Shown: in pieces, positions 47,431 through 54,889 of the stretch
Position numbering within the stretch: the stretch's first letter is position 1
Layout: each line of letters begins with the position of its first letter
IMG/VR virus record: IMGVR_UViG_3300043423_000073
Span: 32,001-96,000 of that record
Origin: a virus
Lineage: Duplodnaviria > Caudoviricetes
Length of the DNA stretch: 64,000 nucleotides
Direction: 5' to 3' (one strand)
Position numbers and translations under genes: made by a program
The notes under the pieces: model-generated
What the model was told of the DNA's origin: nothing
Database searches by the model: none
What the model saw: the letters and a program-made list of their open reading frames with translations, nothing else

Positions 47431-47435
47431 AAACC

Positions 47436-47898
47436 CTGATAAAACCGGCCTAAACAAGGTGTAAAAGATGAAGTCGGGTCTTATAATAAAAGGCTGTTGT
47501 TTATCTTTTACAAAATTTAGGTTCGCCGAAGGCGATAAGGGTGGGAGCGAAGCGAACACCCTTTAATAAACACTTCCCCAACCCGTAATGTTTTACTTTT
47601 TAACTTTTTAACTTTCGGAAGTCTAACCTTTCGACTTTTCAACCTTTCGACTTTTCGACTCTTTACTTCCCGACGTTCCCCTTCTTACATTACGGGTTGG
47701 GGAAGTGTTCTATGGGTGACGATTCGCTTCGCTCCTCGTCACCGCGCCTTCGGCGAAAAACTGTAAATACTTTTTGTTAGACTCGCAGAGCTTCGGGAGC
47801 TTCGGGTGATTCGGGAGCTTCGGCGTCTTCTCAGGCTTTGACGCCTCTGGGAATCCTCTCGTGAATCCCCGAAGTTTTGTGTAGGCCGGTTTTATCAG
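47436..47898. repeat. nested inverted-repeat element, candidate replication origin
   Basis: Perfect IR pairs 47436-47452/47882-47898, 47522-47534/47745-47757, 47544-47556/47723-47735, 47569-47591/47687-47709 around a pyrimidine-rich repeat core. Confidence 0.85.
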
Positions 47899-47943
47899 AT
47901 TTTAGGAAAGCCTAAAGGCTACATTCAAAAGGCTAAATTCAAA

Positions 47944-48555
47944 ATGCACTTTTTTACTTCTGACACTCACTTCCTTGATCCCCGAATCCTAGACTTTACG
48001 AATCGGTGTGACTCAATGTTAGCCGCAGGCTTTAATGAGCACGATGCGTGGTTGACTTCCATTTGGAACTCGCAGGTCTCGCCCGGCGATTTGGTTTACG
48101 TTGTTGGTGACTTCTCGAAGGCGTACACGCCCGAGGCGCTTTCCGAGATCCTCGCGGGCCTCAACGGCTCCATCTTCTTAGTCAAAGGTAATCACGATCA
48201 AAGCTCAGTTCTTCTCAACTGCCCTAATCCAAAGATTGTTAAGTGGTCTCATCGCCAGTCGCTTTCTATCTGCGGCATGCAAACCGTTCTCTCGCATGAA
48301 CCCAAGCTCGTGTGGGTAGGCCAGCACTTGGGCAGTTTTCACCTACACGGTCACACGCACGGTCGGCTTAGTTTCCAAGGGCGTGCGCTTGACGTTGGCA
48401 TCGACAGCGCTTACAAGCTTTTAGGTAGCCACCGACTCTTCACCGAGGCCGAAGTTTTCTCTCGTCTTATCAACCGCAGCCCTGTTTCCTACGACGGTAG
48501 AAAGGTCATCGATGCTCGCCCCGCTCCTCCCTTGGCAATCGCCGACTCTGTTTGA
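47944..48555 (+). CDS. calcineurin-like metallophosphoesterase
   Basis: SDTHF, VGDF, GNHD, SHEP, HGHTH. Confidence 0.9.
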   Translation: MHFFTSDTHFLDPRILDFTNRCDSMLAAGFNEHDAWLTSIWNSQVSPGDLVYVVGDFSKAYTPEALSEILAGLNGSIFLVKGNHDQSSVLLNCPNPKIVKWSHRQSLSICGMQTVLSHEPKLVWVGQHLGSFHLHGHTHGRLSFQGRALDVGIDSAYKLLGSHRLFTEAEVFSRLINRSPVSYDGRKVIDARPAPPLAIADSV

Positions 48556-50026
48556 CCTTTCAAAGGTTTGGGAGCAGGCTAATGCGTCTCAGCGCGAGGC
48601 CCTGTTCGACTTTGCTTACAAGCTCGTCACTGGCGATCCTTTGCTTCCTGTATCACTTCAAGCCTCGCCTCAACCATCGCCTACTGCGCAGTCCGGCTTG
48701 GCTGCCCCACCGCAACCCGCGCCCCAACCTTCAACCCAACCGTCAACACTTCCACTGTCGCCGCAGTCCCAGCAGCTTGCCCGAGTGCCTGCGGTAGTTA
48801 AGCGCGATGACGAGTTTGTTCTTAAAGGTGATCAGGTAGCTGCGTGGGAACTGATCTTAAAGTTTCTCGCAGGTAACGAAAAGTTTTTTGCTCTCCGCGG
48901 TTACGCAGGTACAGGCAAGTCGTTCCTTCTCAAGAGCCTCAAGAAACTCCCGCAGCACAACTTTATCTTTTCGGCAACAACCAATAAGGCCGCCGCCGTA
49001 CTTTCATCTTTCATTGGTGAGCCTGCCAAGACTGTTTATTCGGTCTTAGGTTTGCGCATGGAGCAGGATGACGACAAGCTCGTACTTACGGCCGGCAAGC
49101 GAAGGCAGAATCTAGGTGATAAGCCTATTCTCATTATTGACGAAGCAGGCATGGCTCCGCAGGAGGTTGTGCGTCTTTTGGTTGAGGCGGTAAACACTAC
49201 TGATCTTCGTGTCATCCTCGTTGGCGATCCTGCTCAGCTAAATCCTGTGGGCGAGGTATCGAGCCAAGCGTGGCGCCTACCTTCACCTGCTTGCCGCATC
49301 ACAATGAAGCAGCCACTGCGCTTCGACAATGACCTGCTCACTGTTGCAACAGGTGTTCGAACCGCACTTCGCAAAAAGTCATTCGACTATGACTTTGTTA
49401 CCTCAGCTAACGTTGAGGTCTTGCGTAAGAGTTCCTGGATGGAAAGCATCCTGTCCATTCGTGATTGGGATGCTAACAAGGTAGCCTGCTGGAGAAACAA
49501 AACTGTAAATAAAATAAATGAAGCAGTTAGAGAAGGGCTTGGTTACGAAGACCGGTTCGTGCCAGGAGAGAACATTCTCATGGCCGCTCCTTTGGTTAGC
49601 GACGACACCATTCTCGCCCACACAGACGAAGAGTTTAAAGTCGCCTCAGTCGGCGAGCGGCGCTTTAGCTTGCCGGAGGGTGAGCTTGACGCCTGGGTTC
49701 TAACCTTAGTTGACAAAGACTTTCCGATTTTTGTTCCGCAGAGTGGCGCGGCTTTCCAAGAAGCGCTTTCGAAGAGGGCAAGCCTCGCCTCGAAGCAGGT
49801 CGGCAAGCGTCGCAAAGAACTGTGGTCCCACTTCTGGGATTTGAAAAACCTTATGCAGGACGTCCGTTACGGTTACGCAATGACCACCCACCGACTGCAA
49901 GGAACAACTGTAAATAATGTTTATGTGGATCGCCAAGACATACTGGCGAACCCAAACCCCAAAGAAGGCTACCGATGCTTGTATGTCGCCACAACGCGAG
50001 CGTCTAACTCATTGAAAATCCTATGA
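48512..50026 (+). CDS. Dda/RecD-like SF1B DNA helicase
   Basis: GYAGTGKS, ATTNKAA, IIDEAGM, VGDPAQL, YAMTTHRLQG, LYVATTRA; exact start uncertain. Confidence 0.9.
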   Translation: MLAPLLPWQSPTLFDLSKVWEQANASQREALFDFAYKLVTGDPLLPVSLQASPQPSPTAQSGLAAPPQPAPQPSTQPSTLPLSPQSQQLARVPAVVKRDDEFVLKGDQVAAWELILKFLAGNEKFFALRGYAGTGKSFLLKSLKKLPQHNFIFSATTNKAAAVLSSFIGEPAKTVYSVLGLRMEQDDDKLVLTAGKRRQNLGDKPILIIDEAGMAPQEVVRLLVEAVNTTDLRVILVGDPAQLNPVGEVSSQAWRLPSPACRITMKQPLRFDNDLLTVATGVRTALRKKSFDYDFVTSANVEVLRKSSWMESILSIRDWDANKVACWRNKTVNKINEAVREGLGYEDRFVPGENILMAAPLVSDDTILAHTDEEFKVASVGERRFSLPEGELDAWVLTLVDKDFPIFVPQSGAAFQEALSKRASLASKQVGKRRKELWSHFWDLKNLMQDVRYGYAMTTHRLQGTTVNNVYVDRQDILANPNPKEGYRCLYVATTRASNSLKIL

Positions 50027-50676
50027 AACTCAAATCAACCAAAACCTTAACCATCGATCAATTGCGCGCTCAAGGTGCTAACGCTCCTATCTGGGCTTTG
50101 AACGGCACCAACGAACTGCTGGGCCAGATGGGTGAACTTCATCTGTCAGTGCCTAAGCAGAACGGCGCACGTACCGACCCCTTGGTTCTGTTCGCAACAT
50201 GGCTGCCGGCCAACCTGACCAATCAGATCCCCCGTCAGCAGCTTTTGGACTCTGCCGAGTTTTTGAACGCCGTCAACAATGGCAGCATTGTGCTCATCAC
50301 GCCTGAGTTTGCACAACAGCTCATGACCGAAGACGGTGCGATTGAAGAGCAAGAGCGTGTTACCTGTATGCGCAATGTGGCCAAGAACGCGTTGGCCGGT
50401 CGTCTCCAATCCAAAGACAATGTCTCTGTCGAGGGGTTGCCTTCTTCGGGCGCGCAGGATGAGGACGAAGGCGAAGAGACAGGCGTCTCTGTTGCCTTCC
50501 AAGCCTTGGCCGAGTCGATCCGTGACAAGAACGACGTCAGCGCACTGAACGTGTTGCGCAACCGCAGCCTTACCTCCCAAGAGAAAAAGTTCTTGCGTGC
50601 CTCCGGAACAGTCACCTCGGAGAGCAAGCCCAAGTGCTGGACTTACCTCCGCACTTCTTCCGCCAACCGTTCGTGA
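50023..50676 (+). CDS. hypothetical protein
   Basis: 217 aa, ATGA-coupled, phage-typical codons. Confidence 0.8.
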   Translation: MKLKSTKTLTIDQLRAQGANAPIWALNGTNELLGQMGELHLSVPKQNGARTDPLVLFATWLPANLTNQIPRQQLLDSAEFLNAVNNGSIVLITPEFAQQLMTEDGAIEEQERVTCMRNVAKNALAGRLQSKDNVSVEGLPSSGAQDEDEGEETGVSVAFQALAESIRDKNDVSALNVLRNRSLTSQEKKFLRASGTVTSESKPKCWTYLRTSSANRS

Positions 50677-50748
50677 CCTTTTCACAATCTTTTCATAACC
50701 GTTCGTGATCTTTTCGTAACCAAAACCTTTAATCGAGGACCCACACCA

Positions 50749-51231
50749 ATGACCACCAAAAAAGCTACCACAAAAGCCGCACCTCTGCCTTCGCGCGTCG
50801 CTGAGGCAGCCGCAACTACAAACGCAAAGCCAGCCTCCCCTGCTCAGGCCAAGCCAGCACCTACCCCAAAGCCTCCTCCTCGTTTTCCGAACGGTCCAGC
50901 AAGCGTAGGCAGCAAGCGTATTCTGCCTTCGCACGTTGCCGAGGCAGCCCAATCGAAGGATGTCATTGCTGCTGTTGTTCCTGCGGAAGGGACTTCAATT
51001 GGGGATGCGGTACAGCGTATTGACAACGCTTTCGCCCTTCAAGGGCAGTTGGTCGAGACGCTTACTAGCCGTCTTTGCAACGCAGGTCTTCTCCGCCCTA
51101 TCGACATCGACCTTGAGGTGACCACACCTAAATCTGACACGGCCTTCGGTCAGGCGCTGGAAGAGCGCGCAGCCTTTGTTCAGCACACCAATCTGCGCCT
51201 GAACCTGCTGCTGGACACGCTCGGCGTCTAA
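50749..51231 (+). CDS. hypothetical protein with Ala/Pro/Lys-rich N-terminus
   Basis: 160 aa, RBS GAGG. Confidence 0.75.
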   Translation: MTTKKATTKAAPLPSRVAEAAATTNAKPASPAQAKPAPTPKPPPRFPNGPASVGSKRILPSHVAEAAQSKDVIAAVVPAEGTSIGDAVQRIDNAFALQGQLVETLTSRLCNAGLLRPIDIDLEVTTPKSDTAFGQALEERAAFVQHTNLRLNLLLDTLGV

Positions 51232-51270
51232 AGCACACACCCAGCCCGGAAAAGAAAACTGTAAATTAAT

Positions 51271-51385
51271 TGTGTACCTAGCAGCATGGCGACGGCCTAG
51301 CCCCTTCGCCATCCTAGAACAACACCGGGAAAACCTTTTGGTTAAAAGCTCACGCTGCTTTATGCGGAATGCTGCTAGGTACACA
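51271..51385 (+). ncRNA. putative ~115-nt structured RNA
   Basis: Perfect 17-bp terminal stem 51271-51287/51369-51385 starting just after ACTGTAAAT (51258-51266). Confidence 0.5.
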
Positions 51386-51423
51386 CCCCAATCCCTTCTT
51401 CATCAAAACCTGAAAGCCTTCCT

Positions 51424-51660
51424 ATGTTACACAGCAGTCTCCCACCCTTGGATGTTACCTGCAAAAAGAAGCCAGCCCGAGGCCCCGCCCTCATCGTTCG
51501 TCCCTTGCGTTACATTATCGCGCAGAACTCTTTCGTTGAGCGCGACTCCACTGGCACACCTGTGCTGCGACTCGGCGCAACGGCACGTGAGGCAAAACGG
51601 TGGGCGGCACAAGGTCGCGGTGACATGGTGCAGCGCATTGCCCGTTCCTTGCCGGCCTAA
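51424..51660 (+). CDS. small hypothetical protein
   Basis: 78 aa ORF between two structured RNAs. Confidence 0.5.
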   Translation: MLHSSLPPLDVTCKKKPARGPALIVRPLRYIIAQNSFVERDSTGTPVLRLGATAREAKRWAAQGRGDMVQRIARSLPA

Positions 51661-51682
51661 GGACTAGCAAACTCGACCTGGG

Positions 51683-52471
51683 CAGGAGTGCCTAGGTCTG
51701 TCATTAAAGAAGCGGCGTGGAGCCTTAACCGGCGAAGTCGAAAGACGAGGACACGCTAAGCACGATGCAGAAACATGAGACTTTCGGCGGCATAGGTCAA
51801 TGCTTGCAAACCTTCCGAAGCGTGCAGGGTAGCCCTTGCGTTCACGTTAGGAACCGCACTTTGAAAGCTGCTAAGGTGCTGATAGGAAAGAGGAGTGGGC
51901 TCTGTGGACGCACAACCCACCGCAACTACTGGCAGTGTGTAGCAAGCTGGAATCAAGCCCAGCCTTCTTTAATGACAGACCTTATCGTCGCCAACTCGTT
52001 GATCACCGATCAAGCCACTAAGTAGGCACGTCCGGCAACATGACGGACGTAGAGTGCTGCAGCGCTCTTTGGTCACCCTAGATCCTCCTGGGCTAGGTGA
52101 CGACGAGGTTTATCATGACTTTGTTGGTGGGAAAGAAACCTTCTGCTAACCGCACGCTAGGTATTGAGCGCGTAGCAGTTGCGAGACTGCTTGGCCGCCG
52201 GGAAAGACCGGCACCATCACGCATGTGGGTTTGGCAGGTGTTGTCGGTCAGGTGGAATGAAGTCGCGCTCTGGTCGGCCGGCCAACGTGTACGGCCATTA
52301 ATCCCGACAACCCTGCGCGGGTCGCAACCGCAAACAAGCCTGCAGTCGTGATGGTCACAGTGTTTCAGACGGCACTGCGTCTGCTTGGTGCTGAGCCTAT
52401 GCGGCCAGAGTTACACCAGCCCCTCGTCATAACAGGGGTCAGACGAATTTAGTCGGTATGGGCACTCCCTG
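51683..52471 (+). ncRNA. large ornate non-coding RNA (~790 nt; GOLLD/ROOL-like or new class)
   Basis: Closing helix 51685-51694/52459-52468; perfect 19-bp helix 51694-51712/51964-51982; many hairpins with GNRA loops; 10-bp pseudoknot 52267-52276/52402-52411; no credible ORF. Confidence 0.8.
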
Positions 52472-52535
52472 ACCATCAACCTTCTTGCTTCTTTTGTTTC
52501 CTTTGTTTCCTCACCCATTTTCTTTGAAAGCCCCT

Positions 52536-52745
52536 ATGACCAAAATGATCCGTATTGAGAACGCTGACCTGTCGCGCCACCCTGTGCGCGTCACTGTACA
52601 GCACAAAGTTCCGAGTGGCGAGTGGGTTAATAGCACATGCCACTCCCCAGTGCAGCTTGACAGCCCGACTGCGCAGACCTCGCAGTACATTCACAGCGGA
52701 CAGCGCCTCGTTATTGAGGAGCTCTCGGCGGACGACGCCAGCTAA
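52536..52745 (+). CDS. small hypothetical protein
   Basis: MTKMIRIENADLS..., 69 aa; start moved to ATG 52536. Confidence 0.65.
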   Translation: MTKMIRIENADLSRHPVRVTVQHKVPSGEWVNSTCHSPVQLDSPTAQTSQYIHSGQRLVIEELSADDAS

Positions 52746-52839
52746 GTTGTCAAACAGATTGCTGCTTACCTTCTTTCTTTGGAAGAGGGTAAGCAAGCTT
52801 GCAAGGTGAACCAGTGCCTTGCTTAGGAACGCTCTTGGC

Positions 52840-53280
52840 GTGGGGGCGTGAGATTAATCCTGCCGTAAAATCGGCACCACACCTTTTATATGGTAGTAGA
52901 CTGCTGTAATAGGCAGGCAGATACAAAAGTGAATGACTGCTGGACGCGGGTTCGAATCCCGCCAGGTCCACCATAAGAGCACTAGGCTCTAGTTGTAGCA
53001 ACAGAGTCGCGCAAGTAGCCATACGAAAAAAGGCGCCAAGTACCCAGTCAGGTACAGCGTTATGGCGTAGTGTTCTTCTGACGGGCCTGTACTGGTTTCG
53101 ACAGCGGTAGATAATGGATGTTGACTACTCAGGCAAGCGGAGCCTGCGGAGCAATCCGGAAACCAAGCACGAAAAAGAACTGCCAACGATGCGCAATTCC
53201 TGCAGGCCGCTAACGCCTGATAAAAGTTAGGGGAGCTCCCTGTCCGACGCGCTGATAATGAAGCAAAGCGGATTGGCCCC
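52840..53280 (+). ncRNA. ssrA: circularly permuted (two-piece) tmRNA
   Basis: T-arm GCGGG-TTCGAAT-CCCGC and CAGGTCC-ACCA (52946-52973) lie upstream of the 5' stem GGGCCTG (53083-53089), giving G3-U70; D-loop CTGGTTTCGAC; tag ORF 53182-53220 ANDAQFLQAANA then TGA TAA; outer ends approximate. Confidence 0.92.
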
Positions 53281-53282
53281 TA

Positions 53283-53329
53283 GGCCCGACCGAGTACTCG
53301 TTACTCCTTGATTTCAAAAGAGTCGGGCC
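53283..53329 (+). other. hairpin 3' of the tmRNA coding piece (processing or termination signal)
   Basis: GGCCCGAC...GTCGGGCC stem; no U-tract. Confidence 0.45.
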
Positions 53330-53399
53330 ACCCCTCCCTAATTCTGCCGCAACCCCACCAACAAAAGGAAACCCACGTCGTTCTAGTTAGCGCCGTGGG

Positions 53400-53566
53400 T
53401 TTCTCCGTTTTCGGGCTAAAAACCGAGTAAAACCCGCCTAAACCCCTAAAAATCGGTGTTTTTCGAGTAAAAACCCCGTAAAAACCCGATTTTCTGCTAT
53501 TTTTAGGCATTTTGGTAGGTTTTTCGTGTATAATCAAGGTACAGGAATGTAGGAATACCTATGCCT
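53400..53566 (+). promoter_or_regulatory. putative early promoter, copy 1
   Basis: Phased A/T tracts; GTAGGTTTTTCGTGTATAAT (53515-53534); GTAGGAATACCTATGCCTG; repeated at 58.2-58.4 kb. Confidence 0.75.
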
Positions 53567-54386: not shown

Positions 54387-54889
54387 TTTATCGTTGGAAA
54401 CATCAAAACTGGGTCATGCACGTGCTCGGATTCGTTCAAGGGTTCGGCGAACTCGCCGACAGCATAGTAACCATCTGCTCGCTGGGTTTCTACGGCAGCT
54501 CCTTTGAGATGCGCTGCGCCAGGTACCGGGCAAAGCTTTACTTTGATCTGATGAAAGAGACCCGATCTAAGCTGACGCGAGTCAGTCCGCAGGCAGCGCA
54601 CACAGCAGCTACTGGCGTCACCGCTGCCTCTGCAGATGCTGCCACCCCTCAGCTGAAACTTAAGCACGGCAAAACATACGTTGACCGCAACGGAGATAAG
54701 GTAACTGTGCATCTCTTCGCTGGAGACGAACACAGATATCATTATCATTATCCGTTTGTCGACCGCGCAACTGGCGAGACCTTCTCGCCCCGAGGCGCCT
54801 GGCAACTAGGCCGCCCTAGTGGACTAGACTTGGTGTCACTGGTCGAAGACCCGCCTGTCACCAATCCTTCGCAAGGAGAAACAAAATGA
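54383..54889 (+). CDS. hypothetical protein with C-terminal LxxGKTY...DLVS domain
   Basis: C-terminus nearly identical to the 53626 ORF. Confidence 0.8.
   Translation: MIYRWKHQNWVMHVLGFVQGFGELADSIVTICSLGFYGSSFEMRCARYRAKLYFDLMKETRSKLTRVSPQAAHTAATGVTAASADAATPQLKLKHGKTYVDRNGDKVTVHLFAGDEHRYHYHYPFVDRATGETFSPRGAWQLGRPSGLDLVSLVEDPPVTNPSQGETK

Follow-up and report, generated by a model that had tools for sequence, protein, structure and literature searches.

The 64,000-nt window analysed here, which spans positions 32001-96000 of an IMG/VR phage record (154.7 kb, estimated completeness 65%), contains a stretch of about 790 nt (51683-52471) that raises the question of whether it specifies a large structured RNA, whether this RNA is a single molecule and to which known kind it belongs. 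The original prediction, made from the letters of the stretch, described one ornate, pseudoknotted non-coding RNA that is either a distant member of a class such as GOLLD or ROOL or a new class. The DNA of the window is also present in freshwater metagenomes and derives from a large freshwater phage, and the stretch lies in the replication module of this phage, flanked by replication genes on one side and a permuted tmRNA on the other. The upstream genes specify a Dda-like helicase (48512-50026) as well as a PHROG-17686 protein; downstream are a co-oriented 69-aa open reading frame (ORF; 52536-52745) that begins after 65 nt, the tmRNA (Rfam tmRNA_permuted, 83.4 bits at 52912-53220 by cmscan; tag ANDAQFLQAANA according to ARAGORN) and an NAD-dependent ligase at 54886. 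Close relatives of the flanking 217-aa protein and of the helicase were sought in IMG/VR and none was found. The nearest helicases are ~50% identical, and the contigs that carry them (L082 and L083) are syntenic with the window phage, lack the RNA island and have small genes at that position, indicating that the island is an insertion and not a conserved part of this phage group. A scan for promoters and terminators finds nothing that exceeds shuffled sequences, and a CTTTGAAAGC repeat was dropped as chance-level.

The expectation of a non-coding, structured plus-strand phage RNA is borne out. The longest ORF within the stretch is 86 aa; the two longest ORFs have no protein relatives, their sole look-alikes being spurious ORFs over the same RNA, and the ORF at 52097-52351 has no protein look-alike. 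The MFE of the plus strand is -326.7 kcal/mol vs -282 in shuffles (z -5.0), while the minus strand folds at -295.9 kcal/mol, 31 kcal/mol more weakly than the plus strand. Domain 1 alone (interior and stem) reaches moderate stability only (z -2.5), and domains 2 and 3 together fold with a z of -4.5. G-U pairs conserved among relatives, described below, complete this picture.

We compared the sequence with all 4227 families of Rfam 15 using cmscan, reporting to E ≤ 10. The output consists of the tmRNA models and three chance-level matches outside or unrelated to the stretch; one snoRNA-like chance match touches it. The 506-nt remainder (51975-52480) has no relevant Rfam match at E ≤ 10. This confirms that the stretch is not assignable to GOLLD, ROOL, OLE, RNase P or group I/II introns, and HEARO, raiA, Y RNA and the other covariance models of Rfam 15 have no match on it either. 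The GOLLD model (RF02032), which represents the universally conserved 3′ region in 416 positions, finds nothing at E ≤ 10, whether applied to 51300-53400, to 51975-52480 or to the entire 154.7-kb record, and the ROOL model (RF03087) has no cmscan match at the same threshold. Because Rfam 15 offers no assignment, a new class is preferable to a distant member of a known one, with the qualification, developed below, that one class of 790 nt is not supported.

Relatives of the stretch were found through a gene-calling artefact. A direct DNA search of the phage collection in distant mode gives no match, and nhmmer and blastn searches against 80 IMG/VR loci around related helicases give nothing. The entry point was the spurious 86-aa ORF inside domain 1, whose translation was searched against 1.8 billion protein representatives. 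Three ‘proteins’ match it in blocks split by frame-incompatible stretches, and we therefore regard them as gene calls over a homologous RNA. A profile of translated domain 1 adds no further relatives, and a first sequence pattern has no matches in viral and genome contigs. Three later pattern scans on invariant words, together with the contigs of the ORF matches, yield about 20 loci; 52 of the 54 matches of one genome scan and 2 of 12 viral matches were discarded, as the rest of the element is missing from them.

These loci define an uncatalogued RNA family, here named family A, of which domain 1 is, by profile match and pairing, a clear member. Family A RNAs are ~180-290 nt in size and are predicted to form a long closing stem and six further helices, with invariant loops GA..GGA, GACG, UGGCAGUGU and AAUCAAGC. 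An alignment of 14 distinct sequences (A6) has a 5′ block (~45 nt) and a 3′ block (~100 nt) that are separated by 0-110 nt of variable sequence. The window contains both the 5′ block, GGCG.GGA..GGAC.CGCUA.GCACG.UGCAGAAA, and, in order, the elements of the 3′ block, CUGCGAAGGU..GA.AGG.AA.UGGAGU.GGC...GACG...UGGCAGUGU...GGAAUCAAGCCC. Among the HMM profiles with which relatives were searched, one built without the window sequence matches 51706-51974 at an E value of 5.4e-46 in a search of the 64 kb. Similarity is confined in every comparison to 51713-51966 and ends at the foot of the 19-bp helix that closes domain 1.

We wrote the family A structure by hand, as P1, P2, a two-part P3 bearing the variable insert, P5, P6 and P7 (Table 1), and then counted its pairs in A6. 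Paired cells amount to 93.6%, compared with 29.6-43.6% when the 3′ partners are slid; changes on both sides occur at 26 of 53 pairs vs 4-9 in the slid controls; the covariation score is 0.417 vs at most 0.092 in controls; and none of 500 shuffles reaches any of the five measures. In the window P1, P2, P3a/b, P5a-c, P6 and P7 can all form, save for an A-G mismatch in P5a and an end pair of P6 that is left unpaired. The 26-nt insert specific to the P2 loop of the window contains two mini-hairpins, one of them GTC-GAAA-GAC, and sits exactly between GA and GGA. Three pairs are conserved as G-U (in 14, 12 and 13 of the 14 sequences), which identifies the plus strand as the RNA strand. The perfect 19-bp helix singled out in the original prediction is present, is among only six long inverted repeats in the 64 kb, and corresponds to the closing stem P1, which is 9-15 bp long elsewhere, has a wholly different sequence in each lineage and shows compensatory changes at 12 of 15 pairs. 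RNase P-like and SRP-like short words in family A were considered and rejected, as they have no partner for a P4 helix and no Rfam match; indeed, no Rfam family matches any family A copy.

The remaining pairings that had been proposed for the stretch fare unequally. Most of the listed hairpins are part of the MFE fold, which includes GTC-GAAA-GAC, GTGGG/CCCAC, GCTGG/CCAGC, TTGATC/GATCAA and ACGTCCG/CGGACGT as well as ACCATCACG/CGTGATGGT and GTTGTCGG/CCGACAAC, and GTGGG/CCCAC and GCTGG/CCAGC share with the 19-bp stem the presence of compensatory changes in relatives. The hairpin GCACTT/AGGTGC competes with the family-wide helix P3a and is contradicted by the retention of P3a in relatives without the GCACTT segment. 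The letters of a 10-bp pseudoknot (52267-52276/52402-52411), of a pairing between the two ends (51685-51694/52459-52468) and of a competing ATCATGACT pairing that would create an alternative fold are all in place, but complementary 10-bp stretches with at most two G-U pairs number 8 in the real sequence outside the 19-bp helix vs a mean of 6.6 in dinucleotide shuffles of the same sequence. Since shuffles hold a similar number, each of these three pairings is unproven; relatives give no comparative support to any of them.

Table 1 Features of the stretch and its downstream flank, in window coordinates
Feature	Position	Strand	Basis or remark
Outer stem, 5′ strand (9-10 bp, partner 52460-52468; would enclose whole stretch)	51685..51693	+	MFE fold; chance-level pairing
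Family A module (domain 1)	51694..51982	+	Profile, alignment A6, pair counts, RNA-library contigs
P1 closing stem	51694-51712/51964-51982	+	Family A structure
P2	51714-51719/51752-51757	+	26-nt window-specific insert in GA..GGA loop
P3a	51759-51763/51876-51880	+	Family A structure
P3b	51766-51770/51868-51872	+	Family A structure
Variable P4 region	51771-51867	+	Family A structure
P5	51890-51923	+	Loop GACG
P6	51926-51942	+	Loop UGGCAGUGU
P7	51946-51963	+	Loop AAUCAAGC
Domain 2, hairpin-rich	51983..52196	+	z -4.5 jointly with domain 3; no relative found
5′ punctuation hairpin GCCGG-GAAAGA-CCGGC	52197..52212	+	Directly before closing stem of domain 3
Divergent family B module, base of domain 3 (tentative)	52213..52355	+	Closing helix 52213-52221/52347-52355
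3′ hairpins	52358-52377 and 52378-52445 (52358..52445)	+	MFE fold only
Outer stem, 3′ strand	52460..52468	+	MFE fold; chance-level pairing
ACCAUCAAC word, possible end mark of unit	52472..52480	+	Just past the end of the predicted RNA
Permuted (two-piece) phage tmRNA	52881..53311	+	Co-oriented with 51683-52471, 0.4 kb downstream

Family A occurs on about 20 phage, prophage and metagenome contigs, namely metagenome contigs L084-L088, IMG/VR contigs L089-L100 and L155-L157, and the genomes of two cultured Betaproteobacteria, Novimethylophilus kurashikiensis (L143) and Polynucleobacter sp. UK-Kesae-W10 (L147). Its carriers are phages and prophages of freshwater Betaproteobacteria, and it usually stands beside tRNA or tmRNA genes: the distance to a tRNA is 8 nt in L088 and 250 nt in L087, tRNAs are also found in L143 and L147, and a permuted tmRNA lies 2.4 kb away in the 133-kb contig behind L157. 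In small phages the element is placed between protein-coding genes. The L147 copy, in a lambdoid prophage, follows a CI-like repressor gene that has the same orientation, and HNH endonuclease genes lie nearby. Family A is a phage RNA and not a housekeeping RNA, as only 2 of 401 sampled Burkholderiales genomes carry it and the Polynucleobacter copy resides in a lambdoid prophage.

Beyond domain 1 the picture changes: no relative of domain 2 was found, and the match at the base of domain 3 is weak. For domain 2, nhmmer and blastn searches of ~2.1 Mb of related loci return nothing. The base of domain 3 can be assigned tentatively to a second uncatalogued family, B, defined by the closing helix ..A.CACG/CGUG.U.. 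and two words that come after it, CAUGGGGAUUGGCA (5′ side) and CAGUCCCCAG (3′ side). In the window the 5′ block CACGCAUGUGGGUUUGGCA, the closing helix and CAGUCGUG are present, CAUG.GGG.UUGGCA and then CAGUCGUG coming after the helix, and GUGGGUUUG/CAAGCCUGC stands in place of GGGGAUU/AGUCCCC; a family B profile from which the window was withheld matches 52212-52242 at E 0.003 in a 2.2-kb search, in the 5′ block only. The conserved blocks are common to the window, the Polynucleobacter prophage and at least 16 IMG/VR contigs and the inner part is not, the base being almost without variation and the top free to vary. These elements recur in the Polynucleobacter prophage some 1 kb downstream from family A, where GCCGG-GAAAGA-CCGGC forms the hairpin and ACCAUCACG/CGUGAUGGU the closing helix, accompanied by CACGCAUG.GGG.UUGGCA and CAGUCGUG; the closing helix there differs from that of domain 3 in the window by one compensatory change. 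The 5′ word of family B recurs letter for letter in at least 14 IMG/VR contigs, mostly without family A, and family B as a whole stands without A in at least 14 contigs; two copies stand in tandem in L179, and a copy lies directly behind family A in L090/L100. Family B has no Rfam match. The resemblance of its ends to integron attC sites was dismissed because the core sites do not fit.

Common short elements frame different predicted modules in unrelated phages. Hairpins of the GAAAGA-loop type precede stem-closed modules in L084, L147 (twice), L159 and L181. On the other side, a 3′ hairpin, GAAUGCGCAGGCUGAUGCGC, directly follows the closing stems of modules on unrelated contigs, and in the window its position is occupied by the hairpin at 52358-52377. 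A hammerhead-like CUGAUG in this 3′ hairpin was discarded as a candidate ribozyme motif, with no Rfam match in L084, L147 or L181. At punctuated modules the word ACCAUCAAC comes after a further hairpin; at five independent loci (the window, L084, L147, L155 and, twice, L159) it follows family A in the same orientation at a distance of 160-600 nt, compared with an expectation of ~0.002 per 600 nt. The closing stems themselves share words, for example CAUCA/UGAUG and GUUGG/CCAAC, and series of such modules, each ~1 kb in total, occur in the Polynucleobacter prophage and in the complete phage from which L159 was taken.

Environmental RNA libraries contain sequence from the island. In X3, a metatranscriptomic run from sediment, contigs are identical to the window on 51739-51935, 51987-52172, 52770-52937 and 53092-53290, with zero differences in the tmRNA contigs. 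X4, from another study and labelled metatranscriptomic although possibly DNA, has a difference-free contig on 51708-51942. No X3 or X4 contig falls on 50000-51660 or 52173-52769, where missing cover is not evidence. The DNA run X2 covers the region evenly throughout, and the termination of X3 and X4 contigs inside module 1, where X2 continues, is a weak hint at a discrete RNA species. Discrete accumulation is hinted at and no more, because the contig depths of 150 (domain 1), 17 (domain 2) and 12 (tmRNA) cannot rank the parts of a transcript. X5 contributes a ~97% relative on 52184-52505 with five listed differences, two of which keep a pair as G-U and three of which break MFE pairs; its depth of 2 makes it too thin to serve as evidence.

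Taken by its relatives, the stretch appears as a composite of a family A module, an orphan domain 2 and a weak family B match in domain 3. We favour, with a probability of about 55%, the reading that it is the front of a phage RNA island, an array of stem-closed RNA modules released from a common transcript, and not one conserved giant RNA. A precursor that is processed would be the simplest account because the modules are distributed independently and share framing signals. The co-oriented RNA genes ahead of the permuted tmRNA would be transcribed as such a precursor, and the closing stems, the flanking punctuation hairpins and the ACCAUCAAC word would serve as processing or insulation signals that release or stabilise the modules. 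The 19-bp perfect stem would be a likely site of double-strand-specific cleavage or of protection. Module 1 might then accumulate as a discrete stable RNA and act in trans, as a folded RNA or an RNA-protein particle, rather than through coding or regulation of a neighbouring gene.

The rival that survives best retains the single molecule of the original prediction: one ~790-nt multi-domain RNA closed by the outer stem, with A and B as domains, that is abundant like GOLLD or ROOL and assembles into a higher-order particle. We consider this possible, if rather unlikely. The stretch does form a compact 790-nt block from the outer stem to the ACCAUCAAC word, and the modules of the window phage are packed without spacers, so that the outer stem could close them all; this speaks against an array, as does the weakness of the family B membership of domain 3. 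The order A then B, found in three lineages (the window, L147 and L090/L100), fits domains of a single RNA as well. The setting is also that of GOLLD, with a phage record, a permuted tmRNA 0.4 kb downstream and a block of 790 nt, and resembles that of GOLLD and ROOL near phage tRNA islands (PMC12286853); the 5′ and 3′ domains of GOLLD likewise evolve separately (PMC12286853). Moreover, the same tool that finds no GOLLD or ROOL here detects GOLLD in L143, at 174.8 bits and with an embedded tRNA, 640 nt downstream of family A in a Novimethylophilus prophage region. GOLLD is, however, absent from five other family A records, including a complete 80-kb phage, and family A is therefore not the variable 5′ region of GOLLD. 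Only domain 1 (~290 nt) is conserved as a unit elsewhere, mostly without domains 2 and 3, which are absent beside family A in all other lineages, and in small phages family A stands alone between protein-coding genes. With the outer stem and the pseudoknot at chance level, a single class of ~790 nt is left unsupported.

A cis-acting role, in which the stretch is a leader or processing platform for the 69-aa ORF and the tmRNA and controls their expression or maturation, appears quite improbable. It would be in keeping with the co-orientation and proximity of the small ORF, with X3 contigs that cover 52770-52937 and run into the tmRNA, and with the L095/L092 lineage, where 23 nt separate family A from a downstream 129-aa ORF, the first of a pair of small ORFs ahead of the terminase and portal genes. 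What lies downstream is not conserved, however: a convergent gene follows family A in L094 and L100 and a tRNA follows it in L088, which means that family A is without a fixed downstream partner, and the promoter and terminator scan detected no terminator/anti-terminator alternative. The least probable reading, that the modules act as DNA and not as functional RNA, either as the inverted repeats of small mobile cassettes or as sites of recombination or replication, could draw on modules that look swappable, on shared closing-stem words and recurring short elements that bracket modules and on the HNH endonuclease genes nearby in L147, and is opposed by conserved G-U pairs that are A-C mismatches on the other strand, compensatory changes in internal short hairpins, the presence of the sequence in an RNA library and closing stems whose sequences, unlike protein-recognised terminal repeats, are free to change.

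If the stretch is indeed the front of an array of released modules, host translation or the tRNA machinery may be the target of module 1, a guess that even then we would hold at clearly less than even odds. It is favoured by the constant neighbourhood of tRNA and tmRNA genes, the tRNA-like order of helices and the presence of GG and UC in elbow-type loops, the GG of the P2 loop and the UC of the P7 loop corresponding to the loops that form the tRNA elbow. This tRNA-like reading is itself a guess, a resemblance resting on invariant loops, which are outside the reach of covariation. A more far-reaching picture, which we regard as speculative and doubtful as a whole, is that phages of freshwater Betaproteobacteria carry interchangeable RNA cassettes that are closed by stems, framed by 5′ GAAAGA and 3′ hairpins, terminated by a hairpin and ACCA-UCAAC, strung beside tRNA and tmRNA genes and excised as tRNAs are, with family A as the tRNA-shaped member (cloverleaf helix order, GG/UC elbow), or else that the modules, like GOLLD and ROOL, assemble together into a large RNA particle. 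Were the cassettes real, family A could engage tRNA-handling enzymes or the ribosome, or act as a decoy for tRNA-targeting defences.

The stretch is of a known kind, a structured phage RNA in an RNA island, and families A and B and the punctuation they share appear to be new; no description of either family was found in the main text of openly available papers, searched for the invariant words and for new large phage RNAs. GOLLD and ROOL have recently been shown to form RNA-only cages, and each further large phage RNA family widens the set from which the function of such RNAs can be worked out. Family A combines strong covariation with sequence present in environmental RNA libraries, and it is directly testable because it has two cultured hosts, Polynucleobacter sp. 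UK-Kesae-W10 and Novimethylophilus kurashikiensis La2-4. Punctuation common to unrelated modules hints at an undescribed common maturation pathway for phage RNA islands. More generally, an ‘ornate RNA’ read from a single sequence can be a string of independently evolving modules.

Four known systems invite comparison. Species 1 and 2 of phage T4 (rnaC and rnaD) are small stable RNAs that lie in phage tRNA clusters and are cleaved out of polycistronic tRNA precursors. They resemble the proposed modules as stable non-tRNA RNAs of no known function that are encoded among phage tRNA genes and freed from a shared transcript by processing. Family A differs in its greater size, its long closing stem and its hosts and phage groups. 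Bacterial Y RNAs of the YrlA type, some of them phage-borne, combine a tRNA-like module with a long stem formed by the two ends. Family A likewise has an end-formed long stem and a multi-helix module that possibly imitates tRNA, whereas its tRNA likeness is topological only, no Rfam Y RNA model matches, and a search of the 154.7-kb record (estimated 65% complete), in which the controls were detected, finds no Ro60 (TROVE) gene. ROOL is a phage and prophage RNA that often lies near tRNAs and is very abundant in cells (PMC12286853); it shares with the stretch an ornate structure in phages and prophages near tRNA-type genes, and differs in that its 5′ and 3′ parts intertwine and co-evolve, whereas the parts of the stretch are distributed independently. 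GOLLD is found in phages and prophages beside tRNA islands, has an unknown function and consists of separable 5′ and 3′ domains that evolve separately, the 5′ domain being poorly conserved (PMC12286853). Its sequence and helices are unrelated to those of the stretch and its conserved 3′ region is missing here; both are phage RNAs of several hundred nucleotides with tRNA-type neighbours and separable domains.

The RNA island of the window, a run of co-oriented RNA genes ahead of the tmRNA, opens with a stem-closed element (51271-51385) that overlaps the start of a nominal 131-aa ORF (51272-51667). The circularly permuted tmRNA itself scores 83.4 bits with the Rfam tmRNA_permuted model and 68.9 bits with the betaproteobacterial model, the latter value lying under that model's own cut-off. 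A permuted tmRNA is also present on L157, a second large phage contig, at a distance of 2.4 kb from a copy of family A, the uncatalogued RNA family to which domain 1 belongs. Elsewhere in the window, the gene-free 470 bp between a 334-aa ORF and the next gene holds nested inverted repeats, which look like a replication origin or other structured element.

Coordinates of RNA features and repeats in the window and the compared loci
Feature	Location	Strand	Details
Perfect 17-bp stem around 81 nt, three small hairpins inside	window 51271-51385	+	fold z -6.9, plus strand
tmRNA, circularly permuted, two-piece, phage-encoded	window 52881-53311	+	Rfam match; tag ANDAQFLQAANA
Nested inverted repeats	window 47431-47903		27-nt repeat, 89%; 23-nt repeat, 100%
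RNA island: three tRNAs, standard non-permuted tmRNA, two ~600-nt unassigned gaps	L013 13400-16100	+
GOLLD 3' region, full-length	L143 1354-1817	+	174.8 bits; Novimethylophilus kurashikiensis La2-4
Two family B modules, tandem, 160 nt apart	L179 5977-6230	+
sRNA-Xcc1 (integron-cassette sRNA)	L181 6468-6552	+	Rfam match, 67.4 bits
Row of stem-closed RNA modules, ~1.3 kb in all	L147 500-1900	-	Polynucleobacter sp. UK-Kesae-W10

A distant relative (L013, helicase 39% identical) likewise carries an RNA island ~2 kb downstream of its helicase gene, its tmRNA being of the standard, non-permuted type. A ~97% identical relative of domain 3 (window 52184-52505) was found in lake-water metagenome X5, with differences listed at positions 52254, 52296, 52426, 52435 and 52444, and small shares of the RNA stretch are present in several other freshwater runs.

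In N. kurashikiensis (L143), a family A copy is followed, after 640 unassigned nt, by the large phage RNA GOLLD, which has a tRNA embedded in its linker; the surroundings form a phage-like region with five further tRNAs and tail-fibre genes. The tandem modules of family B, the second uncatalogued family, which the base of domain 3 weakly matches, have identical bases and unrelated tops. On the viral contig L181, a family B module is followed about 0.9 kb further downstream by the sRNA-Xcc1 match.

Both families meet in the Polynucleobacter array, which runs from family A through two unnamed modules to family B and lies within a lambdoid prophage, with a CI-like repressor gene on one side and a tRNA on the other. 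In lambda, the position held by this RNA module array is occupied by rexAB.
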